A stretch of 64,000 bases of DNA from a phage: NCBI GenBank assembly GCA_026683435.1, contig GCA_026683435.1_4866.1. One strand, written 5' to 3'. Under the pieces are notes generated by a model, which was not told the origin of the DNA, ran no database searches, and was given only the letters and a program-made list of their open reading frames with translations. This document shows, in pieces, positions 472-17,464 of this stretch; the first letter of the stretch is position 1; each line of letters starts with the position of its first letter. A program made the position numbers and the translations under genes.

Positions 472-2649
472 TTACGATAACGGTATCGTTGGCCGCACCC
501 ACGGTTTAGGGGCAGATTTGGTATACGGATTACATTCCATCATTTTACCGAGATACGCATCGTAATACACGAAGCGATCGACGTAGAACTTCTCCACCGG
601 TGCACTACTGGTAGCCGATTTCACCCGGTTGCGTTCCACAGCGAGGCTAATCGCCCCGGTAGGTGCGGGTTTTAGCGTGAACATCACCGCGCGGTTGTAA
701 CGCCAAGTGTCGTGCACAATATCAAACTCCGATACACAGTGTGCCATGATACCAAACAATGTGGTGGCTGGTAAGTTGGCTACAGCATCGCCGTATGGTG
801 TTCCCACCAAACCGCCGGGTATGTTTTGCTTTTGGAACAGCGTACCTGAAATAATCGTACCTAAGAACTCCACAACTACAGGCTTGGTTGGGTCGGTGAC
901 TTTATCTATCCCATCCGCACTGGCCAATCGGTTGGCATCTAAATCTGCGAGGTAGTCGAGGAACTCTTGGTACTCGTTGGTGACATTCGGTTTCACCGTT
1001 CCGACGGATACCCAGTTGACGATACTTTTATTCCCACCGACGGCTTCGCCTGCCATCCCAGGGCGAGTCCATGACATCCCGTCTTCACGACCGTAGACAT
1101 AGATCGGCGAGCCGGTAGCCGGGGTGTTCCATTGCTCGAACGCTGTATATCGTCCCGGCTGGCCCCAATCCCCACCCGGACCGCCATAGTAGCGACTCTG
1201 GTAGCCGGTAAATTGTGCGACGACTAACTGAGTAGCACCGCCTTTGTCACGGGACCCAGCTAAGCCGTTACGGTTATTGGTGCCGCTGGGCACCACCGCG
1301 CCTGTCCCGAGTGGCGCACCACCAGCTCCACCGATCTTGGTGGTGCTAAACGCATAGTAGTCGCCCCCACCCCCACCTCCGGCGATGGTGCCGTAGTTTT
1401 CGATGGTGACTTTGCCACGGAAGGCATCGGTAATGTGGATTGCGTCAGCTCCGTCTGCTGATGTGTTCGCAGGCAGAGAATAGACCATACCCGAACCACC
1501 ACGACCAAGAATGGTTCCCCGGTTAACGAAGTTCCAAACCACCTCGCCAATTTGCGGCAATTCGTCGATAACGAACGTCGGTTTCAGGTTGCTGTCGCGA
1601 TAAACGAAAGCCCCCGCATCTACGGTCACGTTAACAAACAAACGCCCGCACGCCGCATGGTTGGTCAACGTCGTGGCCCAGTAGCTGTCCGAAACTTGCG
1701 ACGTAGTTGTGTAGTTCAGGTTAAGGGTTTGCTCGTTATCTTGATAGCGTGCCACATTCAACGTGGCACTGCCCATGACTTTGTACGAACCCTCCACGGG
1801 TGCCAATTGCACTTGTCTTGGCCACTCGCCTGTCAAGTTCTCTACAGGAGCAATTTCGTTTACATCAAAAACACTCCGAATGCCGAGTGTCTCGATGGCC
1901 AGAGCATCGTGCAGGCTACCGGTGAAATCATCCGGGACGTATGTGGTTTTGCCTGCATATGTCTCGAGTTTGTTACGTGAAAAGAACACATACTTCGTTC
2001 CAAACATCCCGCTCCCCGGTCTAGCGGTCAAAGCTACGACGCTGTTATACGCAGAGGTTTGGCCTATATCCTCCGGGGACATAGGGGAGCTGACATCGAC
2101 TTTATCAAGATCCACGATCCGTTTGGTTGCATTAGAGTAGAAGTTAATCCACTGCTGTTTATTCGCAGCCTTTAGCGTGAGAATGATGTTGGTAACAGTG
2201 TAGACGGTGTTGATATCCACGTCACCGTTTATCACATCTAGCGTTTGGCTGCCGTACCAGATAAGACTTGTCTGTTTCGTCTGGAACGTGATGCGCGCAG
2301 CATTGTTTGTCCAAGTGATAGGCAGGTCTTCAAAGTCGTCAGTTAAAAAGGTAATCCCTAGTAGAGTGTCTAAATGCGGCAACAGTTCGTGGATGGACGC
2401 ACAAGTGGGAATGGCATCCAACTTAACCTTGGCGAAATAATCAGCAATATTTTGCTTCGTGACTTGGGCCGTAATTTGACCGTAATTTGAATACCCCGGA
2501 CCCCCTGTCAGTGTGACGTCTAGGGTTTTTTCGTCACGATGCGCCACGGACACCAGGCGTACGTTAGCGGGGTCTACTGCTTTGGCGACCGCGTTTTTAC
2601 GGTTGAGCGACCGAATCACGGTCGCCACTAAATCAGGAGTGTAGGACAT
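472..2649 (-). CDS. N-module paralog family, 725 aa, glycine-rich; putative tail-fibre/virion protein
   Basis: ORF track 725 aa. N-terminal blocks (TLTGGPGYSNYGQIT...NIADYF; LLGITFLTDDF) shared with array paralogs; Gly tracts; C-terminal ...SAPKPWVRP resembles the end of the 2664..3983 product. Confidence 0.6.
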   Translation of the reverse strand: MSYTPDLVATVIRSLNRKNAVAKAVDPANVRLVSVAHRDEKTLDVTLTGGPGYSNYGQITAQVTKQNIADYFAKVKLDAIPTCASIHELLPHLDTLLGITFLTDDFEDLPITWTNNAARITFQTKQTSLIWYGSQTLDVINGDVDINTVYTVTNIILTLKAANKQQWINFYSNATKRIVDLDKVDVSSPMSPEDIGQTSAYNSVVALTARPGSGMFGTKYVFFSRNKLETYAGKTTYVPDDFTGSLHDALAIETLGIRSVFDVNEIAPVENLTGEWPRQVQLAPVEGSYKVMGSATLNVARYQDNEQTLNLNYTTTSQVSDSYWATTLTNHAACGRLFVNVTVDAGAFVYRDSNLKPTFVIDELPQIGEVVWNFVNRGTILGRGGSGMVYSLPANTSADGADAIHITDAFRGKVTIENYGTIAGGGGGGDYYAFSTTKIGGAGGAPLGTGAVVPSGTNNRNGLAGSRDKGGATQLVVAQFTGYQSRYYGGPGGDWGQPGRYTAFEQWNTPATGSPIYVYGREDGMSWTRPGMAGEAVGGNKSIVNWVSVGTVKPNVTNEYQEFLDYLADLDANRLASADGIDKVTDPTKPVVVEFLGTIISGTLFQKQNIPGGLVGTPYGDAVANLPATTLFGIMAHCVSEFDIVHDTWRYNRAVMFTLKPAPTGAISLAVERNRVKSATSSAPVEKFYVDRFVYYDAYLGKMMECNPYTKSAPKPWVRPTIPLS

Positions 2650-2663: not shown

Positions 2664-3983
2664 CTATAGCGGTGGATACCAAGGGACCGGGGCGGTTTTG
2701 CTATATGGACTGTAGACCATATAGCCGCCTTTGCTTGGGTCGTAATAGATGAAATAGTTACAGTAATTCGAGTAGAGGCTCGTCATTTGTTTGGATTGGT
2801 ATCCGTTACGGTATAGTCCCTGGTAAGTAGTAGCTGATGTCGTGGTGGTGTAAGCAGTGTGGTACAGTACCCGACGCCGGTTAGCAATACTTTCTTGGAA
2901 CATCTCTTCGGTCGGAAACGCGTGTTGCATCAGCCGTCGAATACTCCCGGTACAGTATCGAGTGCCATACGGGGAACCCGTTAAATCATCCGCCGTTTCA
3001 GGCGATTCTGCCCGAGTCAACACGTACTCGTTTTGATACAACGTGACGCTCATCGAATTTGGGCTGGTTTCCCGGAAACTCATGTAACGCGCATAACGTT
3101 CGACGTCCTCTTCCTGCGCCAAATAGGCCACGTTATTTTTCGGACCAAAGTGCAAGAAGAACGGACGACGGAGATTACCCATATCCTCAGGTGGCGTCAA
3201 CTTCACGCAGTAATTGTACTCCCCACGCATATCAGGGTCTAAGCCTGGGTTGTTATTGCGTGTAGCGACATACCCATAGAGGTCATACGGGTTATCAGTA
3301 GCAGCATTACCGATAGTGAACGGGATGCCCGACCATGCCGACAGCGCCGCGATGAACTGGGTCATGTACGAGTTACTGTTTAGTCGCAGCGGGGTACCCA
3401 TTGGAATATTGATTATCTGTTGGGTGTACATGCTCCAGTCGAGTCGATAGACCGTGCTGTAAACATCCATGGGTTCCCAAGCCCCGGTTTCGGTGGTGTG
3501 GTACAAGTCGGCAAAGCTGGGCTCTTCACGAATAAAGCTAATAGGAATGTGACCCGTGAATGCGGGGTTATCCGATTTAATCGCCACCGTCCGATCGCCC
3601 GTTGCCACAGTGATCATTGCAAACTGGCTGTCGGGATACGTTAAATCGTCAGCAGTAAGCACCAACCCACAAGCTGCGGAAATCCGGTCGATGATGTCGC
3701 GGTAGGACGTCGCCCGATAAGGTACTTTAACCGGTACGCTGACGCCTTTAAAATACTGCGAAAGGTTTAAGCGGTCGTAGTAGATGTCCATCTTACCGCT
3801 GTAACCACCACCCTGTAATCCGTTTACCACTATACGGCTGTTGCGGCCATCGCGCAAGGCATTGGTTAAAGGACCTTGTAATAACGCCACGTTTGTTGCG
3901 TTGAGTGGTTTCTTGAGCTGCGGGTTATCACGATTAATCTGATCCCAAACCAGCTGCATGACAGGTTTGTTATAGTTGATCAT
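2664..3983 (-). CDS. N-module paralog family (A-type), 439 aa; putative tail-fibre/receptor-binding-like protein
   Basis: N-terminus MINYNKPVMQLVWDQINRDNP...GRNSRIVVNGLQGGGYSGKMDIYYDRLNLSQYF...CGLVLTADDL matches the family module; ATG at 3983. Confidence 0.6.
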   Translation of the reverse strand: MINYNKPVMQLVWDQINRDNPQLKKPLNATNVALLQGPLTNALRDGRNSRIVVNGLQGGGYSGKMDIYYDRLNLSQYFKGVSVPVKVPYRATSYRDIIDRISAACGLVLTADDLTYPDSQFAMITVATGDRTVAIKSDNPAFTGHIPISFIREEPSFADLYHTTETGAWEPMDVYSTVYRLDWSMYTQQIINIPMGTPLRLNSNSYMTQFIAALSAWSGIPFTIGNAATDNPYDLYGYVATRNNNPGLDPDMRGEYNYCVKLTPPEDMGNLRRPFFLHFGPKNNVAYLAQEEDVERYARYMSFRETSPNSMSVTLYQNEYVLTRAESPETADDLTGSPYGTRYCTGSIRRLMQHAFPTEEMFQESIANRRRVLYHTAYTTTTSATTYQGLYRNGYQSKQMTSLYSNYCNYFIYYDPSKGGYMVYSPYSKTAPVPWYPPL

Positions 3984-3993
3984 TGCAACGTCC

Positions 3994-4030
3994 TAAAAAA
4001 AGAAAATAGGCCCTTCGGGGCCTATTTTTA
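3994..4030. terminator. hairpin terminator (TTCG loop) upstream of gene 2664..3983, A/T runs on both sides
   Basis: aataggccc-ttcg-gggcctatt flanked by aaaaaaagaaa and ttttt. Confidence 0.6.
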
Positions 4031-4034
4031 GCTG

Positions 4035-4637
4035 TTATGGTGAAGTACGCTATCCCTTTAACTCCAGCTGATTCGACCTGCGTGTTGGGGATTATCCCGC
4101 TGAATGAGCCGACACAACAGCTCAAGTGCAGTGGATGAGTAAAACCCCATATTAGCTCCTGTTAGCTAAGAACCAATTCGATAACGTGGACTACCGACGC
4201 GCTACTGTTCGAAGAGATGTACGATGGTGAGTCTGGATAAGTGGCGCGATAATACCACGTGTTGGCGTTGCCAGCGATTTGATAGGCGCGTCTACCGACT
4301 GTACACTGCTATCAGATAACCAAACACCGTATAAATCACGTAGAGCTGGGAGAAGATCCCGCACGGTCTTGGCCGTTTGTGGTACGTAGACGCGCGGAGC
4401 TATTTAAAATAGATCTGATAATGTTAAACGGTCGTAATAAACCGTGCACTCCCCAGAGAAACCTTTACCGGGTTTACCTACCAACGTAATTACCGTGTTA
4501 CGACCATTCTTAGTGGTCTCGGCAGGAATACCCCTCACCCCAATCGAATCAGCGCTGATTCTTCCTGCGAGTTCAGGGTTATCCCTTACAACCTGTTGGC
4601 AGAGCAGTTCCAGTTCGGGTGCGCTATACAATCCCAT
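4035..4637 (-). pseudogene. decayed array copy: intact 77-codon N-module fragment (4404..4637) followed by non-coding remnant
   Basis: Fragment MGLYSAPELELLCQQVVRDNP...VYYDRLTLSDLF is about 74% identical by eye (57/77) to the N-terminus of the 6550..7968 product; no ORF in 3984..4403; 4130..4400 keeps residual nucleotide similarity to the 3' end of gene 4649..5548. Confidence 0.55.
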
Positions 4638-4648
4638 GAAGTCTCCTG

Positions 4649-5548
4649 TTAAGGCAGAACGAGTTCAAGTACCGCAATAGAACGTATTGTATCGGTTTCG
4701 TATCTACCGTTCGACGGCGACTCTGGGTAAGGTGGACGGCTGTACCACTGATTGTAAATGTCAGACATAGTCGCAAAGAGTGCAGATTGCGGGGCAGTAG
4801 TCGAATCGGTTGGACCGACCGGAAGGTCGTCAAAGCGCGGCAACTGCCCACTGTAGTTGTACAGGCGCGCGAAAGTGTTAAACCACTCACCGTCGAGATA
4901 CAGCTCGGTCTTACCGCTTCTAACGTTAGTCGTCCAGAATCTGTAGTCGAACAAATACGGCAAACGCACCACGTATTCGTAACCGTTCTTCGCCACCGTG
5001 CGGCGTTGGTTACGTGCAGTGGCCCAGCTCGGTACAAATCCATTGCCATCCTGGCCGTACATCAGCCCCTGGTTATAAATGAACTGCGGGCTAGCGTATA
5101 TTATCGCGTTATCGGACATAAACAGAATACGGTTTTTGTAAATGAACTTATGCCAGGCACCAACGGCGGAACTGAACATATTCACCACGAGGCTGTTCAG
5201 TTCCGTGTTAGTGAATAACTCTGTTGGCGTTACTGTTCCAAAGTATCCAGCGTGCCAGTCGCCGTATAACAGCTTCTGGGGGCCAGGCCCGGTGTCTAAA
5301 AAGAACCCTTGGGCGGTAGGGGTGTTGAAGACACGCTCACCGTCTTTAACCGCAGCTATCCAATAACGGTAAGTGGTGTTGTTTTCCACAGCGTTGTCTT
5401 CGTACGATGTAGCGTCACCCGGAAGGGTTGCCAGAGGCGTTCCCGGTGCATTAACATCAATGGTGGCGTTGCCCGGCGTCTTGCGATAGATTTCGATGCT
5501 ATCGAGCGCCTGTGGCTTCCGTTGTGCAAAGTTTAATGTAATAGGCAT
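4649..5548 (-). CDS. array paralog B'-type (beta-sandwich-like N-terminus + shared core domain)
   Basis: Track ORF 4649..5584 starts at TTG; first ATG at 5548 (MPITLNF...) 2 nt after the upstream stop. Motifs IEIYRK...TYRYWIAAVKD, GPGPQKLL...GYFGTV, C-terminal ELVLP shared with 7982..8905. Confidence 0.6.
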   Translation of the reverse strand: MPITLNFAQRKPQALDSIEIYRKTPGNATIDVNAPGTPLATLPGDATSYEDNAVENNTTYRYWIAAVKDGERVFNTPTAQGFFLDTGPGPQKLLYGDWHAGYFGTVTPTELFTNTELNSLVVNMFSSAVGAWHKFIYKNRILFMSDNAIIYASPQFIYNQGLMYGQDGNGFVPSWATARNQRRTVAKNGYEYVVRLPYLFDYRFWTTNVRSGKTELYLDGEWFNTFARLYNYSGQLPRFDDLPVGPTDSTTAPQSALFATMSDIYNQWYSRPPYPESPSNGRYETDTIRSIAVLELVLP

Positions 5549-5550
5549 GA

Positions 5551-6537
5551 TTAATCCTCGATAAGCTCGATTACTGGAATCCAAACACCGCCCGCGGTCG
5601 CACCAGCGACATGTTGTATACGCTGGAGGTTATCCACGGTATCAGTGGAACCCGCCGCCGTTCCGCGCGTCAGCCCCAACTTACGGTCTGGGTCAAACTC
5701 CTGACAATGCGCCCCGCGGCCACTCACCGCCGATCCACTTCCGAATATGCTGGTGTTCGACCACTTTATCAGGGACATCACTTTTTTCTTTTCTGGGAAC
5801 CAGCTACTTATCCCATAGATGAGTCGGTTGTATTCGCTATCGGCAGTATACGGTGACGCGTCATGGAGTTTACCGTCCCACTGTGCATCGAGTGTCATGA
5901 CCGGGCTTTCACTGTCGAGTGTTAAACCGCGCAGCAGGCGCATCCGATAGCGGTCACCCAACCACGTAAACTCCCCAGCCTGGTCAACGTCAGGTAAATC
6001 ACCATGACCGCCTTCCGGACCAGGTCCCGCCACACCGTACAGCAAACCCGCGTTATAAATCGCATCACGGCTATACAGCGTGTTGCCGTTCACACGAAGA
6101 CCACTAAACAGATACAGAATTTTACCGTCTAGCTGGAACTTCATCAAGCCCGGCTTAACAGTTGGGTCGTATCCAGAAAGGGCCACAAACCCTGGCGGAT
6201 AATCAGCCGCGCTAGGCAATTCACCGTACGCCACATACCCGTAATACGCAAAGCGGTCATCACCGTACTGTGGAGCCACGATGCCGATACCGCGACGGTT
6301 CTGAATTAGAATTGATTTCTGCGGACTGAACAGTGTCCGACTTCCCACTGTCACGGTGGTCATGTAGTAATACGTTGTCCCCAGTATCGCTGTTCGGTCA
6401 GTATACTCAGTTTCCCCGTTAGTGAACGTTGCCAGGGGTTCAGGTAATGCCGTACGCACCAGAGGTTTGGTGTCGCGGTACAGCTTCACGGTCGAAGCCC
6501 CAGGGTTATTGTTCGTCCAACGAATTGTAAAAGCCAT
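5551..6537 (-). CDS. array paralog B-type
   Basis: 328 aa; MAFTIRWTNNNPG...VKLYRD...TYYYMTTVT; core motifs AIYNAGLLYGVAGPGPEGGHG, RMRLLRG; paralog of 8915..9913. Confidence 0.6.
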   Translation of the reverse strand: MAFTIRWTNNNPGASTVKLYRDTKPLVRTALPEPLATFTNGETEYTDRTAILGTTYYYMTTVTVGSRTLFSPQKSILIQNRRGIGIVAPQYGDDRFAYYGYVAYGELPSAADYPPGFVALSGYDPTVKPGLMKFQLDGKILYLFSGLRVNGNTLYSRDAIYNAGLLYGVAGPGPEGGHGDLPDVDQAGEFTWLGDRYRMRLLRGLTLDSESPVMTLDAQWDGKLHDASPYTADSEYNRLIYGISSWFPEKKKVMSLIKWSNTSIFGSGSAVSGRGAHCQEFDPDRKLGLTRGTAAGSTDTVDNLQRIQHVAGATAGGVWIPVIELIED

Positions 6538-6549
6538 TGTCGTTACCTC

Positions 6550-7968
6550 TTATTGGAATCCATCCAACTCACCGTTAGTATCGCCCAGAGTAATTTTTGA
6601 AGGTTGGGCGATTTGGTCAGTCGTGAGAATAATCGGTCTAATCTTAACGCTAGCCATGCCTGTTACCGCGACGGAATATGCACGTTCATCATTGTCCGTC
6701 GTGGCAAGCAGAGGACGTGGATTCGCTGCAGCGGAGGTTTCCGTAATAGGCACCACACGAAGCGATTCGTTTTGGTCGATGTCTGTCAGAGTAACCACGG
6801 ACGGTGCCCATGTCAGTTCTGCACCTTCGTCAATCAACGGCACAGGTTCATTGGCAACATCAAACATCTCCAGGATTGGCCAAAAGCCAGAAGAGGTGTG
6901 GATGTATGTGTATGAACGATAGCTCCCACTGATAGACTGGTAATACGCTTGGTCGGCACCGAACTGGTGTCGTAACCACACGTAATCCAGGAAGTTAGCA
7001 TCAGTCGTGCTAAGAGTTCCCCATTCCCCATATACGTTCACCGACCCCAATTTGCTGGTCAGTGACAGGATAGAGGTGATTGACGGCGGTTTACTCCAAT
7101 CAGGCGCGGCGGCGTTCTCGGTGTAATACGGGATAGACATTCTGAAATAATGCGTTCCTTCATCATCCCGTTTTACCATGTATTTCAACTGTTCAACATC
7201 GACAGGTGTGTAAGTCGACTTCGGGCGAGGTCCTGCGTCTCCGGAATCAAATATTGCACCCTTGTTGTACAGGTCTGCCCAGGTAACGTTGCAAATCGCA
7301 CGGGTCGGAACAAACACTACCGCCCCATTCAGAAAGAATTTGAGCCACTTGATAGCGTAGCGGTTAGGCCAGTTGGTGCCGTTATAGAGGGCATACACCA
7401 TTTCATCAGATGTGAATAACTCTTCCGCGCTTACCAACCCAAAGAATCCGTATAACTCATTACCGGCCATTAATCCTTTTGGCCCAGGACCCGATTTCGG
7501 ATACATCGCAATCGGTTCGTAAACATAGGTCATCTTGCATGACCCGGTATAACACAAGGAGTTAGCGTGCGCCGTCAGAGTTACAGTTTCCGGCGTAGCG
7601 TATTTCATTAATGCAACGTTTGGACTGGTGATGTCACTCGCGGTTAAGTTCAACCCGTTCAATTCATTGAACGCCGGTAACGCTTCCGCATGGGTTTGTG
7701 CGCTACGTGGAATACTCACCATATTCGGGCCAGACTTGAACAGACTGGCCAGATTCAACCGGTCGTAATATACCGTTATTTCCCCAGCAAATCCTTTACC
7801 GGGTTTTCCTACCAACGTAATCTGTGTGTTTCGTCCGTTAACGTTTTTCGCAACAGGAACACCCCTGACCCCAATGGAGTCAGCGGTGATTTTTCCTGCT
7901 AAACCGGGATTGTCACGCACAATTTGTTGGCAGAGCAGTTCCATTGAAGGTTCTGTATACAACCCCAT
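6550..7968 (-). CDS. array paralog A-type (N-module + core domain), 472 aa
   Basis: N-module MGLYTEPSMELLCQQIVRDNP...GRNTQITLVGKPGKGFAGEITVYYDRLNLASLF; core GPGPKGLMAGNELYGFFG; C-terminal NGELDGFQ shared with 9925..11337. Confidence 0.6.
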   Translation of the reverse strand: MGLYTEPSMELLCQQIVRDNPGLAGKITADSIGVRGVPVAKNVNGRNTQITLVGKPGKGFAGEITVYYDRLNLASLFKSGPNMVSIPRSAQTHAEALPAFNELNGLNLTASDITSPNVALMKYATPETVTLTAHANSLCYTGSCKMTYVYEPIAMYPKSGPGPKGLMAGNELYGFFGLVSAEELFTSDEMVYALYNGTNWPNRYAIKWLKFFLNGAVVFVPTRAICNVTWADLYNKGAIFDSGDAGPRPKSTYTPVDVEQLKYMVKRDDEGTHYFRMSIPYYTENAAAPDWSKPPSITSILSLTSKLGSVNVYGEWGTLSTTDANFLDYVWLRHQFGADQAYYQSISGSYRSYTYIHTSSGFWPILEMFDVANEPVPLIDEGAELTWAPSVVTLTDIDQNESLRVVPITETSAAANPRPLLATTDNDERAYSVAVTGMASVKIRPIILTTDQIAQPSKITLGDTNGELDGFQ

Positions 7969-7981
7969 GGTATTTACTCCA

Positions 7982-8905
7982 TTACGGTAAGACTAATTCA
8001 AAAGCAAAGAACATCGTGGCCGAGTTCCCGACACCTGAGGTGTTACTAATCCCCATAGGCGCATAACCGTACGCATAAGCGAAAATGTTGTTGCTCCATA
8101 AAGGAGCTAATGCAGCAGCACCTGTTTCGTTAGGCTGGTAAGTTGAACCTTGCGCCGGTATTGAATCGATGGCACCAAGACCAATAGGCGGGAACTGTGA
8201 ACCGACAGGATACAAACGGCCCATTGTGTTTCGCCATTCACCGTTGTTGTAATCCTGTCCTGAGAGTGCCGCGTCGTACGGGACTGCGTAAGGTAACCGG
8301 ATACGGTACGTACGACCATCCTTCGTGACCTTACAATCTTGTTTGGTCGCCGTGGCCCCCAGCGGAACAATACTTCCGTCATCATCGGTCCCGTACATCA
8401 TGCCGTACTGATACGCCATTTGTACCGAGTTGCTTTTCGAATGCATCGTCGCTGGGAAGAAGACAATTCGCCCACGGAAAATAAACTTGTGCCATTCCTG
8501 AGGGTCGTAAGTAAACATGTTTCCCTGCTGCGCGGTTAACATGAGTTTTAACTCGGCAGTATTAAAGAACTCGGTATTAGATACCGTACCGAAATAGCCT
8601 GACGCCCAATCGCCACGCAAAATAGTTTGTGGCCCCGGTCCAGTGTCCGGATAGAACCCTTGCGTAATCGGATTGCCGATAAGTCGTTCATTATCTTTCA
8701 CAGCAGCTACCCAGTAACGATAAGTTGTATTCTTCGTCAGGGTATCGATATTATCTACGAACTCTACCGCGCTACCGGATAAGGTGGCGTGGGGTGTACC
8801 TGGGTTGTAAACGTCGATTGTTGCGTTCCATCCTTCCTTGCGGTAGATTTCAATCGCGGTAAGACCTTTGCTGGCTTGGGACGGCCAGCTTAACCGTATA
8901 GTCAT
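7982..8905 (-). CDS. array paralog B'-type
   Basis: 307 aa; IEIYRKEGWNATIDVYNPGTP...TYRYWVAAVKD...GPGPQTILRGDWASGYFGTV; C-terminal FELVLP. Confidence 0.6.
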   Translation of the reverse strand: MTIRLSWPSQASKGLTAIEIYRKEGWNATIDVYNPGTPHATLSGSAVEFVDNIDTLTKNTTYRYWVAAVKDNERLIGNPITQGFYPDTGPGPQTILRGDWASGYFGTVSNTEFFNTAELKLMLTAQQGNMFTYDPQEWHKFIFRGRIVFFPATMHSKSNSVQMAYQYGMMYGTDDDGSIVPLGATATKQDCKVTKDGRTYRIRLPYAVPYDAALSGQDYNNGEWRNTMGRLYPVGSQFPPIGLGAIDSIPAQGSTYQPNETGAAALAPLWSNNIFAYAYGYAPMGISNTSGVGNSATMFFAFELVLP

Positions 8906-8914
8906 GACTGCCCC

Positions 8915-9913
8915 TTACTCGACCAGTTCAAAGATAGGGTAGTAGCGCCCTTTCGTGGTGGGTGATAAATAGTTTATACGCTGAATCGTGGATACGGGTG
9001 TTCCACCGGCATTGTTAAAAATACCACGATGGAGCACACGGTCTTCCGCGGTATCGTGTTCCATACAGAGAACACCACCGCCGAAATACTGTGCCAAGGT
9101 TCCCAAAGTACCCTGTCCCAGATAAGTATAACCGATTGTTGCCCAGTTAGCCCAACGCTGTTTCTTCGGCACCTCGTTAACCATCGTGTAAAGTAAATCG
9201 TTATACTCACACGGGTTGGTTAGAGAAGCGATTTCATCATGGGTTTTCCCATTATAGTCAGCTACGAAAGGATACGCAGGAGGCTCGCTAGACGTCGTCA
9301 GGCCGCGAGGAAGACGCATAATGTACGTATCCCCTTTGTGGACTATCTTAGCGTCTTGTGGAGTGGCCGGTAGCGTTCCATGGCCGTTCTCTGGGCCAGC
9401 ATCGCCCGTACCATAGACTAAACCAGCTTGATAGAGGGAAGCCCAGTCCACAGGCGTATTCGGGAACTGCGACGTGTTAGATAGCATGTAATAGATCTTC
9501 CCGTTTCGGGTAAATTTATACAACGCCACACGATCGGTTAGTAGGTTAGGGAACATCGCCAAAAATGCAGGTGGCATTTGCGACGGAAGCCACTGTTCGT
9601 CGTAAGGAACCGCACCCATAAACCCTAAACGGTCGTCACCGTTTAGAATAGTCATTGGGCCTATCCCGCGTTTTACCTCAACAGTATATTTCTGGCTAGA
9701 CGATGCCACTGTTTTACCGTTGGCGGTTACCGTCAGAAGGTAATAATAGGTTGCGCCTGGTGTGGCGGTGGTATCACGCCATTCTGTCTCGCCATTTGAG
9801 AGCGTTGCAATCGGTTCAGGCAAAGCGCCTGGTGTGATATCTTTAACATCACGGTAGATTTTTACTACCGTAGGGATTACGTTTGGATTTTTCCAACGCA
9901 AAGTAAAAGACAT
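8915..9913 (-). CDS. array paralog B-type
   Basis: 332 aa; MSFTLRWKNPN...VKIYRD...TYYYLLTVT; LYQAGLVYGTGDAGPENGHG; C-terminal PIFELVE. Confidence 0.6.
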   Translation of the reverse strand: MSFTLRWKNPNVIPTVVKIYRDVKDITPGALPEPIATLSNGETEWRDTTATPGATYYYLLTVTANGKTVASSSQKYTVEVKRGIGPMTILNGDDRLGFMGAVPYDEQWLPSQMPPAFLAMFPNLLTDRVALYKFTRNGKIYYMLSNTSQFPNTPVDWASLYQAGLVYGTGDAGPENGHGTLPATPQDAKIVHKGDTYIMRLPRGLTTSSEPPAYPFVADYNGKTHDEIASLTNPCEYNDLLYTMVNEVPKKQRWANWATIGYTYLGQGTLGTLAQYFGGGVLCMEHDTAEDRVLHRGIFNNAGGTPVSTIQRINYLSPTTKGRYYPIFELVE

Positions 9914-9924
9914 GGATGATACCT

Positions 9925-11337
9925 CTACTTAAAGCCGTCCAGTTCACCGTTAAGAGACGTTAACGTTGTCTTGTCGGGGGGAGTATACATTTCAGCGGTA
10001 GCCGCAATAGGTTGGAAGTCGACTGTCTTCGGCAGCATTAATGCAGGCGGATGCAGTGCGAAACTGTTTTCTGAAGTAACAACTACCGGTTCGAAATCGG
10101 TAGTATCTGGATTACCGAGCACCAACGGCTTGAGACTAAACGTGTTTTCTGCGGACACGCTGCACGGTTGGAGGCTGTAATCTACCGCGCCGTGGATATC
10201 TTCTAAGCCCAAGGTAACCGTGGACTTATCCACCAACTCTAGCACCGGGAACCAGTAGTAGTTGCCTGCGCTCGATGATTTTTCTAAGTTTGTCCAACTG
10301 GCTCCAGACAACGTCGCCATGCGATGATAGGCGACGTTGGTCTTCAGTGTATCTTTCAATAAACAGAACAGCGTCCAGTAACTGTTAATCGGTTTGTCCC
10401 ACGTTCCATTATACAGAAAGTTGAACATCTCAAACTCACTACCTGCTAACTCAGCGGCAGTTGGGGTGCCGCTGACGTATGGGTCTTTCCCGGCACTAGG
10501 TAGACGAACACGGAAGTAAAACCTTTTGTTGTCTGCGCCTGTAAAGCTAATGATGCGTCCCTGGTTAACGGGCGTCGCCGCAGGGTATTTACCATTATCA
10601 TCTGTTCCGTAAACGAGTCCGTTTGTATATAATGTATTCCAGGAGATGGAGCTAGCGACAGGACTGATCGGGAGGTAAATAACCCTACCCTGGTAAAAGA
10701 ACTTGTACCAACCTTCGGCACCAGAATGTACCGGTGGTAACGCACCGGCCGATATAGTGGCATTAAGAAGTTGAGAGTGTGTAAACAACTCTGCAATTGT
10801 GGTTGTTCCGAAATAACCCGCAATAGTGTTACCTTGCAGCAACGTTTTAGGGCCAGGTCCAGAATCGGGGTAAATTGCACCGCTCGGGACGGTATAACGT
10901 ATCGTTAAGCTGCCTGTAAACGCAGGGCAATTACCTGAGATATTTAATTTCAGCGTCTGCGGCGAAGCGCTCGGTTTAGGTAGACTTGCGTCAGGTAACT
11001 GCAAATCAGAAGCAACTAATGTAAGCCCCAATGCGTCGTTTATTGCAGGTAGCGCGTCTCGTACCGTTAAGACTGTATCTTTGATAGCCACAGTCGGCAC
11101 AAAATTAAATAAAGTGGCCAGGTTAATCCGGTCGTAGTACACGGTAACATTACCTTGTACACCTGTCCCTGGATACCCGGTGAAAACAGCTTTGGTGTTA
11201 CGTTGGTTTAACGTAACTGAAGTTGGGCCGCTGGTTAAAGCAGCGATAGCCGGCGTCAGCTTAACAACTAAATCAGGGTTATCCCGATTGACTTGGTCGT
11301 ATACAAGCAGTGCCGACTCCTTCGAGTAAAATAGCAT
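9925..11337 (-). CDS. array paralog A-type, 470 aa
   Basis: ATG at 11337; N-module ...NQRNTKAVFTGYPGTGVQGNVTVYYDRINLATLF; core DSGPGPKTLLQGNTIAGYFG, LYTNGLVYGTDDNG; C-terminal NGELDGFK. Confidence 0.6.
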   Translation of the reverse strand: MLFYSKESALLVYDQVNRDNPDLVVKLTPAIAALTSGPTSVTLNQRNTKAVFTGYPGTGVQGNVTVYYDRINLATLFNFVPTVAIKDTVLTVRDALPAINDALGLTLVASDLQLPDASLPKPSASPQTLKLNISGNCPAFTGSLTIRYTVPSGAIYPDSGPGPKTLLQGNTIAGYFGTTTIAELFTHSQLLNATISAGALPPVHSGAEGWYKFFYQGRVIYLPISPVASSISWNTLYTNGLVYGTDDNGKYPAATPVNQGRIISFTGADNKRFYFRVRLPSAGKDPYVSGTPTAAELAGSEFEMFNFLYNGTWDKPINSYWTLFCLLKDTLKTNVAYHRMATLSGASWTNLEKSSSAGNYYWFPVLELVDKSTVTLGLEDIHGAVDYSLQPCSVSAENTFSLKPLVLGNPDTTDFEPVVVTSENSFALHPPALMLPKTVDFQPIAATAEMYTPPDKTTLTSLNGELDGFK

Positions 11338-11352
11338 AGGGACTCCGCATCG

Positions 11353-11382
11353 CCAAAAGAGGGGGGGCTCCGAAGAGCCCCT
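11353..11382 (-). terminator. hairpin terminator after gene 11387..12214
   Basis: ggggctc-cgaa-gagcccc, G7 run in 5' arm; T-rich on minus strand. Confidence 0.55.
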
Positions 11383-11386
11383 ACAC

Positions 11387-12214
11387 TTAGCTGTTATAGT
11401 GGTAGTACGCCACGCCTTTCACGCCTTCCTCATCGATACCCGTTTGGACAACCACGCGGTCGTACGATTTGTTAGCGAACTGAGCGGTGGATGTCGGCAC
11501 ATCCTGAACGGTGTTACTGTTCAGTGGCCCCGCGTAGTTCGGAATACCCAGGTCATCCAACACCTTACGCAAACCAGCCCACTGCGGTAGGCCAGAAGCA
11601 TCTACTGTCAGTAGGTTTTTATACGCGGTAAAGTCAATACCGTACGTCAACAAATCAATACACTTCTTACCGAGAGACGGTGAAATAGGCTCTTGAATCG
11701 CATTCAAGACATCCGATTTCACCGAAGTGTCTAGTACCGGTAAACCACGGTTATAACGCAACGTCGCAGAACCGATATAAGCCGGAGATGTCGATAGCGC
11801 TACGATGTTCTGTGTATTGGTGTAATTTGGGGTATTGGGACCCGCCAGTGGGAGGTTATAGATATCGATTGCAGAGAAGTTTACTCCGTAAGTATCCAAG
11901 AGCACCGAAAAGGCTGAGTGGAGGTTGGGAGCGTCAAACGTGACGAACTGCGCCTGGACAGAAGGACCCCACGGCAATAACCGCGCTAAGTTCACACGGT
12001 CGTAGTAAACGGTGATTGCGTCTCGAAATCCAGAACCCTGAATACCGCGCAAGCGTGCCGACGTATTGCGGTTGTTGGAAGCTGCATTAACGGGAACCTG
12101 TGTCACTTTCTCCACGTAGCAGTTTGCCGGCGACGCTTTAATAGGTAGGTTTGGGTTATCCCGGTTAATGAGGTCAAAGACCAACTCGTTTGACGGCTTA
12201 GCATAGTTGATCAT
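11387..12214 (-). CDS. N-module paralog, 275 aa, C-terminal YYHYNS (C-type end motif)
   Basis: Track start 12217 is TTG; ATG at 12214, 4 nt after upstream stop. MINYAKPSNELVFDLINRDNP...NNRNTSARLRGIQGSGFRDAITVYYDRVNLARLL. Confidence 0.6.
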   Translation of the reverse strand: MINYAKPSNELVFDLINRDNPNLPIKASPANCYVEKVTQVPVNAASNNRNTSARLRGIQGSGFRDAITVYYDRVNLARLLPWGPSVQAQFVTFDAPNLHSAFSVLLDTYGVNFSAIDIYNLPLAGPNTPNYTNTQNIVALSTSPAYIGSATLRYNRGLPVLDTSVKSDVLNAIQEPISPSLGKKCIDLLTYGIDFTAYKNLLTVDASGLPQWAGLRKVLDDLGIPNYAGPLNSNTVQDVPTSTAQFANKSYDRVVVQTGIDEEGVKGVAYYHYNS

Positions 12215-12217
12215 CAA

Positions 12218-13105
12218 TTATACCTCGCTTGGATCGTCCAGATCGTTGAACTGGAGATACAACGTTCCGACGATGGTGGTACAGGTAACAGGCAGTTTCA
12301 ACACCAGCGCATACTTGTACTTCGCGTTTGTCGGCATTGCAACAGGGTCATTCAGACCAACGCTGATAACCTCCGCGCCCGCCAAACCGTAGGAAGCGGA
12401 AGTGGTCGCTACCCATGCAGTACCCGTGATATCTTTCAGCAGGTTAACCATATCCGTCAACGGCTGTCCAGACAGAATACCCGGCTTGTATGCCAGCAGA
12501 GCATCTCGGTACTTAGTGAAGTTGTACGGGTAGGAATAGACCTCTGCAATGACCGCAGTAACATTTTCGGAACCCATCTGACCGTTCGGGTATTTCAGAC
12601 CGGTCAGGACGTTAGTAGTGACCGCAGAGACTAACGACTCATCGCCTTTCACGACTTTAAATGTCGCCTGTCCAACCCAACCGATAGACTCTGGATGTGC
12701 AACAACACGCACAGTACCTTCGGTCTTATCACCGTTCCATTCGATATCTGCGTCCTGCAGGTCAGCTTCTTCCAGAACAAAACCGTAACGTTGGTTCAGT
12801 CCAGGAATGGCCGCATACAAGGTTTCGTTGGATGGGCCGATCGCCAACGTGTCACCAATCAACACTAACAAGTCTTCGACTTTCATGCGGTTGTAGAAGA
12901 CATTTTTCTTACCCGACCAGGTAGAGCCCGTTACCCCATCTGCCGTAATTTTAATTTGCGTGTTACGGTTAGTCAGCGTTTCCTTTTCCGTACCACGGAT
13001 GTCCTTTGGCGTGGACCAGATGATGTCAGTCATCTTAACAGCAAGCGAGTTCTGTGCGTTCACTGCTGCCAACAGGACGTCTTTAGAAGGTTGATAAATA
13101 GCCAT
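12218..13105 (-). CDS. N-module paralog C-type, 295 aa
   Basis: MAIYQPSKD...TNRNTQIKITADGVTGSTWSGKKNVFYNRMKVEDLL...RYGFVLEEADL; C-terminal LYLQFNDLDDPSEV. Confidence 0.6.
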   Translation of the reverse strand: MAIYQPSKDVLLAAVNAQNSLAVKMTDIIWSTPKDIRGTEKETLTNRNTQIKITADGVTGSTWSGKKNVFYNRMKVEDLLVLIGDTLAIGPSNETLYAAIPGLNQRYGFVLEEADLQDADIEWNGDKTEGTVRVVAHPESIGWVGQATFKVVKGDESLVSAVTTNVLTGLKYPNGQMGSENVTAVIAEVYSYPYNFTKYRDALLAYKPGILSGQPLTDMVNLLKDITGTAWVATTSASYGLAGAEVISVGLNDPVAMPTNAKYKYALVLKLPVTCTTIVGTLYLQFNDLDDPSEV

Positions 13106-13115
13106 TCGCTAATTC

Positions 13116-13955
13116 CTAGTTGTTGTAGTGCAACATACACTCGCCGATTACTTTCGGGTCGTTCTGAATGCCGGTAATCAGCAATACGTTATCGTACGCT
13201 TTATTGGCGGTCGCCAACTCACTCGTTTTGTAGCGGGTAATTGTGCAGTTCGTCGGATCAAACGACGGTACCCCACGTGCGACCAATGTGGCCATCAGAT
13301 TGGACGTGTAACCCAAATCAAAGTTACTTCCTACGTCCATTCGCCCGTTCTTAAACGAGGCCATAACCTGCACTTCATCGGTAAAGTCTTCCCCGTACGT
13401 CAAGAAGCCCATGTATTTCTTACCAGTGCTTGCTGCTGCAGGGTGGTTCAAAGCCAACAAGATGTCGTTTACCACGAGGTCTTCGAGGCTATTCTTACCC
13501 CGGATAGACATAAAGGTGATGCTGCCAGTGTATTGGATACAGCTAGCGTTAATACGCATCGTGTTGTTTACGTTCAGATAAACGTATTGTTCTGGGATAT
13601 CATCTGCAACCAGGTTTAATCCATAACGACCGTTCAGGTTCTGCGCAAACGCAGTACGTTTCGACTCCACGTTCAACCAACCGTAGGCATTCGGTGCAGT
13701 TACCTGAGGTGTCATGTTCTTAAATAAGTCGTTCAGCGACAAGCGCTTATAACGGAACGTTTGAGGACCGATATAACCACGACCTTGACGACCACGAATG
13801 ATAATCTCGGTGTTGGCACCGCTTGCTGTCGGTGTGATTGCTTTCGGCGTACCGATGATAGCATTGTCTAAACCCATCGGTAGAACAGCATCCGGGTTTT
13901 CGGCATTAATCGCATCGTACAGATATTGTCGCTGAGACAGACTATATAAAGCCAT
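13116..13955 (-). CDS. N-module paralog C-type, 279 aa
   Basis: Track start 13973 is TTG; ATG at 13955 with GAGGAGG 4 nt upstream (MALYSLSQRQ...). Module ...GRQGRGYIGPQTFRYKRLSLNDLF...RYGLNLVADDI; C-terminal MLHYNN. Confidence 0.65.
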   Translation of the reverse strand: MALYSLSQRQYLYDAINAENPDAVLPMGLDNAIIGTPKAITPTASGANTEIIIRGRQGRGYIGPQTFRYKRLSLNDLFKNMTPQVTAPNAYGWLNVESKRTAFAQNLNGRYGLNLVADDIPEQYVYLNVNNTMRINASCIQYTGSITFMSIRGKNSLEDLVVNDILLALNHPAAASTGKKYMGFLTYGEDFTDEVQVMASFKNGRMDVGSNFDLGYTSNLMATLVARGVPSFDPTNCTITRYKTSELATANKAYDNVLLITGIQNDPKVIGECMLHYNN

Positions 13956-13970
13956 AATAGCCTCCTCGGC

Positions 13971-14012
13971 CAAAAAAGAAAGGAGTAGCCAGGAGGAGGA
14001 TTTCCTCCTCCC
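13971..14012 (-). terminator. hairpin terminator after gene 14025..14936
   Basis: ggaggagg-attt-cctcctcc; minus-strand T-run (plus caaaaaagaaagg). Confidence 0.6.
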
Positions 14013-14024
14013 AGCGAGGCCTAA

Positions 14025-14936
14025 TTAGGCATTAAAGTGCAGGTACATGATACCCTGGAAGTTGGTGCACAGAGTGTCATCCAGCTGCAGCAGCAGAACC
14101 TGGTTGTAAGCAGTGTTTGCACCTTCAACCGGTTTCTTAGGTTCGTCGCCTGAAGCAGTGCCATCGTCAGTAGTAGAACCAACGTACAACACGTTAGCGC
14201 CTTTCAGGTTATAATCCGCAGGCTTATCAGATGCAACCCACAGTTCCGGCACAACTTTATTCAGCTCAACCGGGAATGCAGAGTCGCCAGCGATAACACC
14301 TTTCGCCTGTACTTTCAGGAATGCTGCGATTGCTGTGCAGTCTACACCGTAAGAGTAGATGTAACCCTGACCCTTCGCAGCGCTTGGACCATCTGGGTAA
14401 ACCAGGCCGTCGAGCTTGGTTTGTGTTACCACCAGACTCAGACGTTCACCAACCTGAGGCTTAGCACCGATTTTAACCGGGATGCTGCCCAGATAAGCGT
14501 AGCAGTCTTCTTTGAAAGTAATGACGTGGTCAACCGGTGCTGGGTCCGGATCGTTCGGGTTAGTCAGCGGCGGGTTGGTATTTTCCGGAATAGCCGCCGG
14601 AACGATATCGTCTTCGGTCAGCTTCAATCCGTATTGGGTGTTCAGGGTCGTCAGCAGGTCGGTGGTGGTTTTCGGCAGTTTAACGTCGAGGTATGCGGTT
14701 ACATTACGGAACAGCGCACTGCCTTCCAGGCGATTATAAGTCACGTCCTGAGTACCGATGTACCCGGAGTTCTTTTTCGCAGTCAGGGTCATGCTGGTAT
14801 TGCGATCGGCACCTTCATCGCTAATAGGGGTCGGTGTGCCGAGCGTTATTTTAGAAAGTTCCAGTTCTGCGTCTGGGTTTTTCTCATTAATAAAATCCAG
14901 AACCAGCTTATCGGACGTTTTGTTTAAAGGTTTCAT
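14025..14936 (-). CDS. N-module paralog C-type, 303 aa
   Basis: MKPLNKTSDKLVLDFINEKNP...ADRNTSMTLTAKKNSGYIGTQDVTYNRLEGSALF...QYGLKLTEDDIV; C-terminal MYLHFNA. Confidence 0.6.
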   Translation of the reverse strand: MKPLNKTSDKLVLDFINEKNPDAELELSKITLGTPTPISDEGADRNTSMTLTAKKNSGYIGTQDVTYNRLEGSALFRNVTAYLDVKLPKTTTDLLTTLNTQYGLKLTEDDIVPAAIPENTNPPLTNPNDPDPAPVDHVITFKEDCYAYLGSIPVKIGAKPQVGERLSLVVTQTKLDGLVYPDGPSAAKGQGYIYSYGVDCTAIAAFLKVQAKGVIAGDSAFPVELNKVVPELWVASDKPADYNLKGANVLYVGSTTDDGTASGDEPKKPVEGANTAYNQVLLLQLDDTLCTNFQGIMYLHFNA

Positions 14937-14957
14937 TCTTACTTCCTTTACTCAGGA

Positions 14958-15803
14958 TTAATCAGGGTCGTTGTAATGCAAATACAAACGCCCGCCAAAA
15001 TTCAGACAGTACAACGACAGCTCCACAATCAGCACGTTGTCGACTGCTGGGTTGGTTGGTAATTCCGCTTTGTTACGCCCGTTATAGACGACGACGGCTT
15101 CACGAAGGTTAAAGTCGATAGGGTTGCGGTACGTTGTCCAGTTATCACCGGTGACCGTTTTGAGAATCTGTGCCAGACGTTCTGTGGTTATCGCAGCACC
15201 TAGTCGTTGAAATTCCTCCGCGAAATTATCAAAGCGCCAGGGATACGAATAAACTGCACCTTGACCGACCTTGATGTTAAAATACGGATACTCGTAAGGC
15301 ATCACTGTTAACGGTTCGAAGTTTGCAGGAAGCAACGCATCGCCTGGTAACAGCTGTACCTGTTGTTGCCCTATCCAACCTAAAGAAGTGGGCGTGGCAA
15401 TCAGATCCACACGCCATGTCTTCCTGTCGATTTCGGTATTCACCACATCTGCAGGTTTAAGGCTGAGACCGTAATACTGGTTAATTAACCCGACCACGTC
15501 ATGCATCTGGTAAACAGCATCGAGACGTGCAGGAACACGTAGAGGTTGAATCCCGTCCGGATCGGTAAACATGTCTGCGAAGTCAACACGATCGTAGTAC
15601 ACGGTAGTGGCACCGATAGCATTAGCCGTGGCCAATGCCTGAATGCGCACCATCGCGTTGTGACCGTTAGCTTTTGCCAGGTCTTCGTCAGACGTCGGAA
15701 TCGCAGGGACACCAAAAACAACATCTTCGACTTTTAAATCGAGATTGTTTTCGACGTTAACTTCCGCGATAATAATCTTTTCAGCTGTGGCTAAAAGTGG
15801 CAT
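14958..15803 (-). CDS. N-module paralog C-type, 281 aa
   Basis: ...TTVYYDRVDFADMF...YYGLSLKPADVV; C-terminal LYLHYNDPD. Confidence 0.6.
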   Translation of the reverse strand: MPLLATAEKIIIAEVNVENNLDLKVEDVVFGVPAIPTSDEDLAKANGHNAMVRIQALATANAIGATTVYYDRVDFADMFTDPDGIQPLRVPARLDAVYQMHDVVGLINQYYGLSLKPADVVNTEIDRKTWRVDLIATPTSLGWIGQQQVQLLPGDALLPANFEPLTVMPYEYPYFNIKVGQGAVYSYPWRFDNFAEEFQRLGAAITTERLAQILKTVTGDNWTTYRNPIDFNLREAVVVYNGRNKAELPTNPAVDNVLIVELSLYCLNFGGRLYLHYNDPD

Positions 15804-15813
15804 GTCAAAATCC

Positions 15814-16656
15814 TTATATCGGGAGATAATGAAGGATGAGATTACCGGCGTAGTTGCTGTCCGCAGCTAGCTTGATAATCGCCACACGCTGATAATCGGG
15901 GTTGTAACTATCGTTCGGTGTGACTGAAGTTATCCCCATAAATCGTGCACCTTGGAGTGCAATTTGTTCAGGTTGCGCATTCGCCCCCGTCACATATGCA
16001 AACTTTAATGGCACCACTTCATTCAACAACTCAACATCCGCTGCAGTGATTGCACGGTTGTAAACCCAATCGGTGGTGAACTGTTTTTGCAGTTCAGTCC
16101 AATCGTAACCATACGCCACATACTCAGCCTGCGGTTTACTAGCAACCACGAACGGCGCGATAATTGCGCTGAGGTCAACATCCGTCACCACATCCGCCAA
16201 GTTCGGGAAGAACTTCGCAAAGCGTAAACGGAAACCACCTTGCCAGGCCAAGCAACCGGGCTTAATAGTCACATCGATTAACCAGCTTTCTCCCAAATCT
16301 TTTACTGACTGGTCAACGATATCGTCGGCAACTAAAGACAAGCCGTATTTCGCATTCAGAAACGGCAACAACTCAGAGAGTTTATTTACCGGGTCGGCAA
16401 CGACTACCGGTATTACGTTCCTGAACAGAATTTCCATTTCGATACGGTCGTATTCGAGCGTAACGTTGCCTTTGTAGCCCTTGCCGTTCAACCCGTATAA
16501 GAGCACACGCGTATTCCGGTCAGCGCCAGGCGTTTGGACAGACTCAGGGAAGCCAGTTGCAACCTGCTCCCATGTGAGTGGATTGGCCGTTAATCCGTTC
16601 TGTCGGTTAATAGCATCTAACAACATCTCTTTCGAGGGCTTATCGTAAATAGACAC
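15814..16656 (-). CDS. N-module paralog C-type, 280 aa
   Basis: MSIYDKPSKEMLLDAINRQNG...ADRNTRVLLYGLNGKGYKGNVTLEYDRIEMEILF...KYGLSLVADDIV; C-terminal LILHYLPI. Confidence 0.6.
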   Translation of the reverse strand: MSIYDKPSKEMLLDAINRQNGLTANPLTWEQVATGFPESVQTPGADRNTRVLLYGLNGKGYKGNVTLEYDRIEMEILFRNVIPVVVADPVNKLSELLPFLNAKYGLSLVADDIVDQSVKDLGESWLIDVTIKPGCLAWQGGFRLRFAKFFPNLADVVTDVDLSAIIAPFVVASKPQAEYVAYGYDWTELQKQFTTDWVYNRAITAADVELLNEVVPLKFAYVTGANAQPEQIALQGARFMGITSVTPNDSYNPDYQRVAIIKLAADSNYAGNLILHYLPI

Positions 16657-16666
16657 CTATACCCTC

Positions 16667-17464
16667 CTAGTTGTTAAAGTGTAGGTTGAGGCTGCCCTGG
16701 AAGTTCGTACATTTATCGGTCAGTTGCACTGACACGACTTTCGCGAACGCCGTATTTGCTCCCGGCAAGTCTGCAGGTACGCCGTCGAATACGACAGTGG
16801 CACCACGCAGGTTATACGGGGATGGGGTATCTTCAGCTACCCAAATCTCAGGAACACATTTGTTGAGTTCGATTGCCAACGCCGTGTCATCTACCTCGAT
16901 ACCGACCGCTAAGAGGCTCAGGAAACGAGAGATGTGGCTACAATCGATGTCACGCGAATAGATATACGCCTGACCCAACTGGATGTCCTGGTGATCCGGG
17001 TACAGAAGACCGCTCAACTCTGTATTGGTTACTACTTCTGCCAGAGGTGTAGCAGGTTTCAGCTCGATGACCGCTTGACTTCGCCACTCGTGGGAAGTTT
17101 CAACAGCAACGACTGTGTGCGTCTGTCCATCAATGGGGTTATCTTCGATATCCTCAGGTAAGATAGACAGATTAAAACGCTCGTTAATCGCCGCGAGTAA
17201 GTCGTGCGTGGTTTGCACGTCCTCGTCTCCAAAGGCAACATCGCCTGTAAGGTAGTCCTCTAATGGGCGACGATGGTAGTCCACAATCACTTGCGTACCT
17301 TCATCACCGCGCATCTTCGAGGTAAGGACTACCTCCGAATCACGACCGTCTACTGACACAACCTCCGGCAGTCCGATATCAACATCGTCAAAGGTAAGCG
17401 GTGGGCTTATCTTATTCTCTTCGTTGATGAGTTTTAGCAGATTCTGTTTTGAAGTAAAAGACAT
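16667..17464 (-). CDS. N-module paralog C-type (first gene of array), 265 aa
   Basis: MSFTSKQNLLKLINEENK...; C-terminal SLNLHFNN; divergent N-module. Confidence 0.55.
   Translation of the reverse strand: MSFTSKQNLLKLINEENKISPPLTFDDVDIGLPEVVSVDGRDSEVVLTSKMRGDEGTQVIVDYHRRPLEDYLTGDVAFGDEDVQTTHDLLAAINERFNLSILPEDIEDNPIDGQTHTVVAVETSHEWRSQAVIELKPATPLAEVVTNTELSGLLYPDHQDIQLGQAYIYSRDIDCSHISRFLSLLAVGIEVDDTALAIELNKCVPEIWVAEDTPSPYNLRGATVVFDGVPADLPGANTAFAKVVSVQLTDKCTNFQGSLNLHFNN

Follow-up and report, generated by a model that had tools for sequence, protein, structure and literature searches.

Paralog family B of the Salmonella jumbo phage SPN3US, which comprises gp83, gp138-154, gp161 and gp237 (Thomas et al. 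2016, Ali et al. 2017), is possibly the largest paralog family of any phage and has no assigned function; the literature on SPN3US treats it as one undifferentiated set of head paralogs (PMC5105663, PMC5694885, PMC10052503). A DUF7941 protein of phage Goslar forms filaments in vitro, with head-to-tail oligomers predicted, and the same preprint describes fusions of DUF7941 to carbohydrate-binding domains and proposes a baseplate-anchored 'fibre cloud' for host recognition (bioRxiv 10.64898/2026.04.21.720040). The phiKZ atlas places the N-domain of gp127 docked in the outer baseplate. A comparative sequence study published in 2021 found no FGS (C-type-lectin-fold) domains in jumbo phages (PMC7824862). 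The locus described here lies in a 64,000-nt stretch of phage DNA (GenBank assembly GCA_026683435.1, contig GCA_026683435.1_4866.1; hereafter the window), in which a three-gene cassette, A-B-B', is present twice in tandem between positions 4649 and 11337. Neither the cassette genes nor their paralogy are new, as both have been described in SPN3US; the lectin-like fold of the products and the three-gene unit appear to be undescribed in the literature on family B. On balance, each cassette is probably a multi-subunit host-binding (adhesin) module of the Chimalliviridae DUF7941 fibre system.

All of the genes under discussion are on the minus strand. The first cassette consists of A1 (9925..11337, 470 aa), B1 (8915..9913, 332 aa) and B'1 (7982..8905, 307 aa), the orthologs of SPN3US gp145, gp146 and gp147, and is followed by A2 (6550..7968, 472 aa), B2 (5551..6537, 328 aa) and B'2 (4649..5548, 299 aa), the orthologs of gp148, gp149 and gp150. 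The six open reading frames (ORFs) thus have the coordinates and sizes given in the initial annotation. Across positions 4000-11400 the window shows 95-97% nucleotide identity to SPN3US and ∼30 other Seoulvirus genomes. The cassette genes are colinear with the SPN3US records NC_027402 and JN641803 (96-98% nucleotide identity, identical position and order), and their products share 90-99% amino-acid identity with gp145-150. A1 to B'2 are direct orthologs of gp145-150 and members of the virion paralog family B.

Comparison of the two cassettes by BLASTP reveals the colinear, position-specific similarity that had been proposed, far beyond chance for each gene. A1 and A2 are 30% identical over 486 aa (E 2e-62), B1 and B2 38% over 340 aa (E 2e-60), and B'1 and B'2 41% over 319 aa (E 5e-65); the similarity of B to B' is weaker, with only 25-31% identity across ∼190 aa. 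In dot-plot terms, the colinearity is evident between proteins and almost absent between nucleotides. Only three short colinear high-scoring segment pairs connect the cassettes at the DNA level (68-74% over 58-107 nt, E 5e-6 to 8e-4), and a nucleotide dot-plot is of no use at this divergence. Synonymous sites between the copies are saturated (pS ∼0.8), so the duplication is old, and the ratio of non-synonymous to synonymous divergence (dN/dS) between the copies is undefined; it was taken instead from ortholog comparisons between strains. The terminal motifs thought to match between cassettes do exist at the C-termini, although B/B' and A carry two different ones: P-[IVF]-x-E-L-V is the last strand of the shared domain in B and B', whereas A ends in a terminal NGELDGF peptide. 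Duplication of the cassette as a whole is borne out, as each position is closest to its counterpart in the other cassette and one to four copies exist elsewhere. By these comparisons the two cassettes are ancient whole-cassette paralogs.

The number of cassettes varies among related phages. The Cronobacter phage CR5 has one cassette, preceded by gp154 and gp155 homologs; Lh1B and SPLA3 have two; SPN3US has three; and the Erwinia phage ChrisDB has four, preceded by seven DUF7941 genes. In SPN3US, ChrisDB and CR5 the order is always A-B-B'. Of 49 related IMG/VR viral loci, 41 have one or more runs in which an A-type gene precedes two genes for Fibronectin type III (FN3)-lectin proteins, with patterns that include 'aBb', 'aBbb', 'aBbaBb' and 'aBbbaBbb'. 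PhiPA3, Noxifer and PhiEaH1 harbor the triad run with an A-type protein that has no DUF7941 N-domain; fusion of this N-domain to A is confined to the 13 SPN3US-like loci, where at least five DUF7941 genes always come first.

In a neighbour-joining tree of the lectin-like domains, sequences cluster by position and by cassette type. Types 1, 3, 4 and 5 have 94-100% bootstrap support in B and B'. The A tree is compatible and less resolved, with 99% for types 1 and 4, 64% for A(2+3) and 97% for A(4+5). The B clade is supported at 91%, and the deep split of A and B' is poorly resolved. The three position phylogenies are largely congruent. Together with synteny, this grouping indicates that the triad predates these genera, that multiplication of the entire unit gave rise to at least five types, and that differential loss is now under way. 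The cassette is a conserved evolutionary, probably functional unit, and its fold and copy-number dynamics represent a modest advance over what was known.

Cassette loss is recorded in the window itself. SPN3US and Proteus phage 7 have a third intact cassette, gp151-153 (480/332/300 aa), of which the window lacks 2,865 bp, seen as a gap in the BLAST mapping to SPN3US with a deletion junction at ∼4257-4273. What is left of it is an A3 pseudogene (4257..4637), in which 127 codons from the start of gp151 survive and codon 78 is a premature stop (4404-4406), and a B'3 pseudogene (4162..4273), which keeps approximately 35 codons from the end of gp153 in a reading frame other than that of the A3 fragment. 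Next to these is a fourth-A stub (4058..4150), in which ∼22 first codons match the A start of the type-4 cassette of Salmonella phage JN03 before the sequence diverges into a stop; SPN3US has this stub too. The decayed unit noted at 4035..4637 is therefore a real deletion remnant of gp151-153, but not a single third repeat, since it is a composite with the fourth-A stub. JN03 has a cassette-3 junction and stop codon identical to those of the window, so the lesion is inherited. Cassette 3 is cleanly lost in the E. coli phages Lh1B and EC001 and in Salmonella phage SPLA3. JN03 (MT799840) also carries, at 1156-4574 and directly beside the endolysin gene, an intact A-B-B' cassette of the fourth type (504/326/298 aa) that is closest to ChrisDB gp171-173; this phage has no homologs of gp154 and gp155, and the fourth-type cassette occupies their place.

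The proteins of the cassette are built from few domains. A1 and A2 match DUF7941 (Pfam PF25613) with 109.9 and 105.5 bits against a cut-off of 27, and B and B' have no Pfam match to DUF7941. The match in A1 and A2 is limited to profile positions 1-153 of 276, and the linker and C-domain of the full DUF7941 architecture are missing. An alignment-based AlphaFold model of A1 (predicted local distance difference test score, 76.7) contains two folded regions and a disordered tail: the DUF7941 N-domain at residues 1-150, like that of the phiKZ peripheral-baseplate protein gp127, a C-type-lectin/FGE-like domain at 155-376, and a tail at 377-470 with two 'DF-x-P' repeats and the end NGELDGFK. A2 has the same architecture, and the tails of A proteins contain short proline-containing repeats whose number is variable between A genes. 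In B1, an FN3 domain (residues 1-80) precedes the lectin-like domain common with A (81-332), and B'1, B2 and B'2 likewise combine an FN3 and a lectin-like domain. The structure models behind these domain assignments are confident.

At the level of fold, the shared domain resembles the C-type lectin/FGE-sulfatase superfamily, and residues 1-80 of B and B' resemble Fibronectin type III. The best-scoring fold neighbours of the shared domain are non-enzymatic binding domains, and structural relatives in the viral structure library are only 'virion structural proteins' of phiKZ-like phages. None of the six proteins matches Pfam Lectin_C or FGE-sulfatase at E ≤ 1, and nothing informative was retrieved from the PDB by sequence, whether the query was a single protein or a family profile. 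Carbohydrate or other ligand binding by the shared domain is putative. Two roles for the A tail were considered and rejected. As a relocated DUF7941 linker, the tail gives an hhalign probability of 0.1 against the linker/C-domain region found in the seven full-length paralogs, and the five-residue resemblance of ELDGF to [KE]L[DS]G[LF] is too short to count. Docking of B and B', one to each of two tail repeats, is at odds with a repeat number that varies between A genes and is one fewer in A2 of the window.

Variation between strains was assessed by comparing the window with SPN3US, Proteus phage 7, JN03, Lh1B and SPLA3. The A genes (dN/dS ∼0.1) and the FN3 domains are nearly invariant, with substitutions concentrated over the last ∼100 residues of B'2, B'1 and B2. 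In B'2, these residues have a dN of 0.15-0.17 and a dN/dS of 0.9-1.6, against a dN of ∼0.013 in the N-terminal part; the variable C-terminal ∼80 residues of B2 have a dN/dS of 1.2-1.9, on small counts. The C-terminal ∼95 residues of B'1 combine a dN of 0.09-0.12 with a very high dS, a divergence that points to allele exchange by recombination. Over B'1 (7982-8905), dS to SPN3US and JN03 is 0.29-1.4, compared with ∼0.03-0.1 in adjoining genes, and in its N-terminal part the gene is close to the Proteus phage 7 and SPLA3 alleles, which points to a mosaic allele gained by recombination. The pattern of localised variability in B and B' is the one expected of an exchanged or diversified ligand-binding surface. 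A further difference is found in A2, where an in-frame loss of 78 nt at 6713-6720 (minus strand) removes one 26-aa 'PRPL' tail repeat that is kept in all five comparison phages; the loss appears to be mediated by the repeat. A diversity-generating retroelement (DGR) was rejected as a source of variation, as the 64-kb window contains no template/variable repeat pair and no reverse transcriptase; its only long direct repeats are the paralogy of A2 with the A3 remnant and short regulatory repeats.

The genes flanking the cassettes also carry DUF7941 domains. Downstream of the remnants lies the gp154 ortholog (2664..3983, 439 aa), which joins the DUF7941 N-domain found in A to a different C-terminal part and is an alternative module at the cassette locus. 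In the gp155 ortholog (472..2649, 725 aa), the DUF7941 N-domain is joined to a tail-fibre adhesin domain of the Gp38 type, which occupies residues 373-553 (Pfam PF05268, 65.9 bits; cut-off 25), and the PHROG match of this protein is to tail fiber/host specificity. The last ∼110 residues of the gp155 ortholog are also similar to the C-terminal end of the gp154 ortholog (28% identity, E 8e-7). Upstream of the cassettes, seven full-length DUF7941 paralogs of ∼280 aa each (11387..17464), the orthologs of gp144 back to gp138, are presumed fibre subunits. The spacers within the six-gene block measure 11, 9, 13, 12 and 2 nt, which corrects the earlier figure of 10-15 bp, and all five carry a Shine-Dalgarno-like motif. 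Terminator-like hairpins (minus strand) flank the block, one upstream, in the 49 nt that separate A1 from the last DUF7941 gene (11364..11381), and one with an 11-bp stem followed by a T-run (4003..4028) that closes it. With these tight spacers, motifs and hairpins, the cassette block looks like one close-coupled transcription unit.

All nine cassette proteins of SPN3US, gp145-153, have been detected in virions (PMC5694885 Table S1). Their abundance index SC/M ranges from 0.48 to 2.15 (0.91/0.84/0.50, 0.99/2.15/0.86 and 0.48/1.88/0.77 per cassette), compared with 0.93 for the 12-copy portal and 9.39 for the DUF7941 paralog gp141 (PMC5694885 Table S1). The earlier suggestion that A, B and B' work together is strengthened, not proven, by the presence of these nine proteins in the virion, all at comparably low abundance, and of the triad in 41 of the 49 loci.

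The assignment of the cassettes as host-binding modules is based on the fold neighbours of the shared domain, the fusion of a Gp38 adhesin domain to the same N-domain in gp155, the cassette that stands in for gp154/gp155 in JN03, the conservation of the triad and the localised variability of B and B'. In such a module, A would act as the adaptor, with its N-domain plugging the module into DUF7941 filaments or the baseplate's periphery, and the three paralogous lectin-like domains would join into one hetero-oligomeric tip, with the host ligand bound by the variable surfaces at the C-terminal ends of B and B'. The diverged cassettes would each give a different specificity, and host range would be tuned by the gain, loss and swapping of cassettes; the window would record the loss of cassettes 3 and 4, and JN03 the presence of a cassette in place of gp154/gp155. 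A stronger version, in which A, B and B' form an obligate hetero-oligomeric C-type-lectin-fold tip on long DUF7941 filaments, and thereby a family-wide, unrecognised host-recognition device of the Chimalliviridae whose copy number and alleles set host range, is speculative and rather doubtful in its entirety. If true, the obligate tip would be a three-gene counterpart of the Mtd homotrimer.

Several observations weigh against the host-binding module. Conserved gene order could stem from shared regulation alone; the three FN3-lectin genes of distant 'aBbb' lineages are a poor fit to a simple 1:1:1 trimer; by hhalign, the A tail does not resemble the DUF7941 linker at profile level; and where dN/dS exceeds 1 in the variable parts, the counts are small, and some of the variation is recombinational allele exchange and not local positive selection. 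The main conflict is with an exclusively baseplate-anchored fibre and comes from two SPN3US mutants, in which paralog family B was found in purified tailless particles and classed as head (PMC5105663, PMC5694885, PMC10052503).

Location on or in the head is the rival that best survives, although it is unlikely: the cassette proteins would decorate the capsid surface or neck, or be internal, and play no part in adsorption, and their lectin-like and FN3 domains would serve capsid stabilisation or non-specific adherence, like the Ig-like decoration proteins of other phages. The frequent occurrence of FN3/Ig-like domains on phage capsids counts in its favour. So do the mutant particles, as family B including gp145-154 is present in the tailless particles of 64_112(am27) and the head particles of 255(am107) and is listed as 'Head'. 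This detection may reflect attachment to the head or neck, or co-purifying filaments. Against a head location, the purified Goslar DUF7941 protein forms free filaments, which could co-purify with heads, gp155 has the same locus and N-domain and bears a tail-fibre adhesin domain, the cassette proteins are not processed by the prohead protease, unlike known internal head proteins, and copy numbers near that of the portal are too low for capsid-wide decoration.

Somewhat less probable again is the view that the products A, B and B' stay separate, as independent lectin-like proteins of the virion that form no complex, with an order inherited from an old operon and duplicated en bloc by unequal recombination. 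The unequal SC/M ratios within cassettes agree with independence, as do lineages with a fourth member ('aBbb') or an irregular order such as 'aBaba'. Yet order and composition are held in the 41 loci with the triad, in very divergent genomes, against a changing background in the remainder of the locus; it is always whole units that are duplicated or lost, and in Lh1B and SPLA3 exactly one cassette has been deleted. In addition, only A has the DUF7941 N-domain, and B and B' have no recognisable attachment domain besides FN3. An enzymatic role, in which a shared domain of FGE/EgtB-like or glycosyl hydrolase type lets the cassettes modify or depolymerise surface polysaccharide, is very improbable, because the six proteins match no Pfam enzyme family at E ≤ 1, the top fold neighbours are non-enzymatic, and the glycoside hydrolase and pectate lyase likeness behind the rejected 'glycosyl hydrolase' label (B and B' in Proteus phage 7 and MET_P1_082_240) is confined to FN3 accessory modules and does not extend to catalytic domains.

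Other features of the window lie outside the cassette locus. Two small proteins encoded on the minus strand at 25196-25747 (183 aa) and 48447-48974 (175 aa) are hardly more than a DUF7941-like N-domain (hidden Markov model E values of 7.5e-11 and 2e-6, respectively), and are probably the orthologs of SPN3US gp122 and gp83; the end of the second, '...ALDGFRPGEFLNG', recalls the NGELDGF terminus of the A proteins. A direct repeat of 73 nt, at 18404-18476 and 37158-37230 (74% identity), opens with a short hairpin (AGAGTTA...TAACTCT) followed by 'CACCTAAGTAATATATATCTGAAA' and may be a phage promoter or regulatory element. Another hairpin is present in three copies, at 18468-18513, 30157-30202 and 46299-46344 (e.g. 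CCCTACTCC-CGAA-GGAGTAGGG), with A-rich and T-rich flanks, and these copies are terminator-like elements, bidirectional and placed between blocks of genes. Two pairs of very long ORFs lie across from each other on the two strands, at 59482-61782 (minus, 766 aa) and 59659-61806 (plus, 715 aa), in the most GC-rich stretch of the window (0.53), and at 54653-56323 (minus, 556 aa) and 54734-55840 (plus, 368 aa); the antisense ORFs of both pairs are probably not genes.

Host recognition by nucleus-forming jumbo phages is poorly understood, and such phages are candidates for therapy and biocontrol. The SPN3US paralog family of 17-21 members has been functionless on paper since 2016, and the idea of DUF7941 fibres dates only from 2026. 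Part of the family is now resolved into a repeating three-gene unit with a lectin-like fold that is conserved across genera and is gained, lost and swapped between close relatives. The cassettes are concrete candidate determinants of host range, for which phages with one, two, three or four cassettes provide a natural experiment. If they prove to be head components instead, they would bear on the unexplained complexity of giant-phage heads.

Among described systems, the closest is SPN3US gp145-153, whose genes are direct orthologs with ∼97% nucleotide identity in the same order; SPN3US has three intact cassettes, where the window has two and the wreck of a third, and the A2 tail of the window is 26 aa shorter. 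The DUF7941 fibre proteins available for comparison are Goslar gp22 and gp23, the fusions gp86, gp92 and gp161, and phiKZ gp126 and gp127 (bioRxiv 10.64898/2026.04.21.720040; PDB 9xqd). Unlike these, the A proteins of the window have no linker and C-domain, and their appended domain is lectin/FGE-like. They also have two separately encoded FN3-lectin partners, and none is described for Goslar (bioRxiv 10.64898/2026.04.21.720040). In a tblastn search with B' (E ≤ 1e-8), only Lh1B and EC001 matched among E. coli phages, the inclusion of Goslar in the collection being unchecked.

The C-type-lectin-like fold recalls that of receptor-binding and DGR variable proteins, namely Mtd of Bordetella phage BPP-1, TvpA and TaqVP. 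In contrast with the Mtd/DGR systems, the window has no reverse transcriptase or template/variable pair, and diversity stems from diverged paralogous cassettes and the exchange of alleles, not from mutagenic retrohoming. There are also three distinct genes in place of one homotrimer, and membership of the family at the sequence level was not found with Pfam. In their organisation, the cassettes resemble the multi-receptor-binding arrays of large phages, such as the four CBA120-like tailspikes or the RaK2-like branched fibres, and the gp37-gp38 adhesin system of T2/T6, in that host-recognition genes are tandem, diverged and modular, with a conserved N-terminal attachment domain and differing distal parts. 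They differ from these systems in that the repeat unit consists of three genes instead of one and in that DUF7941 takes the attachment role that a T4 gp10-like or tailspike N-domain has there. The likeness to the T2/T6 gp37-gp38 system extends to the adjoining gp155 ortholog of the window, which carries a Gp38-type adhesin domain.

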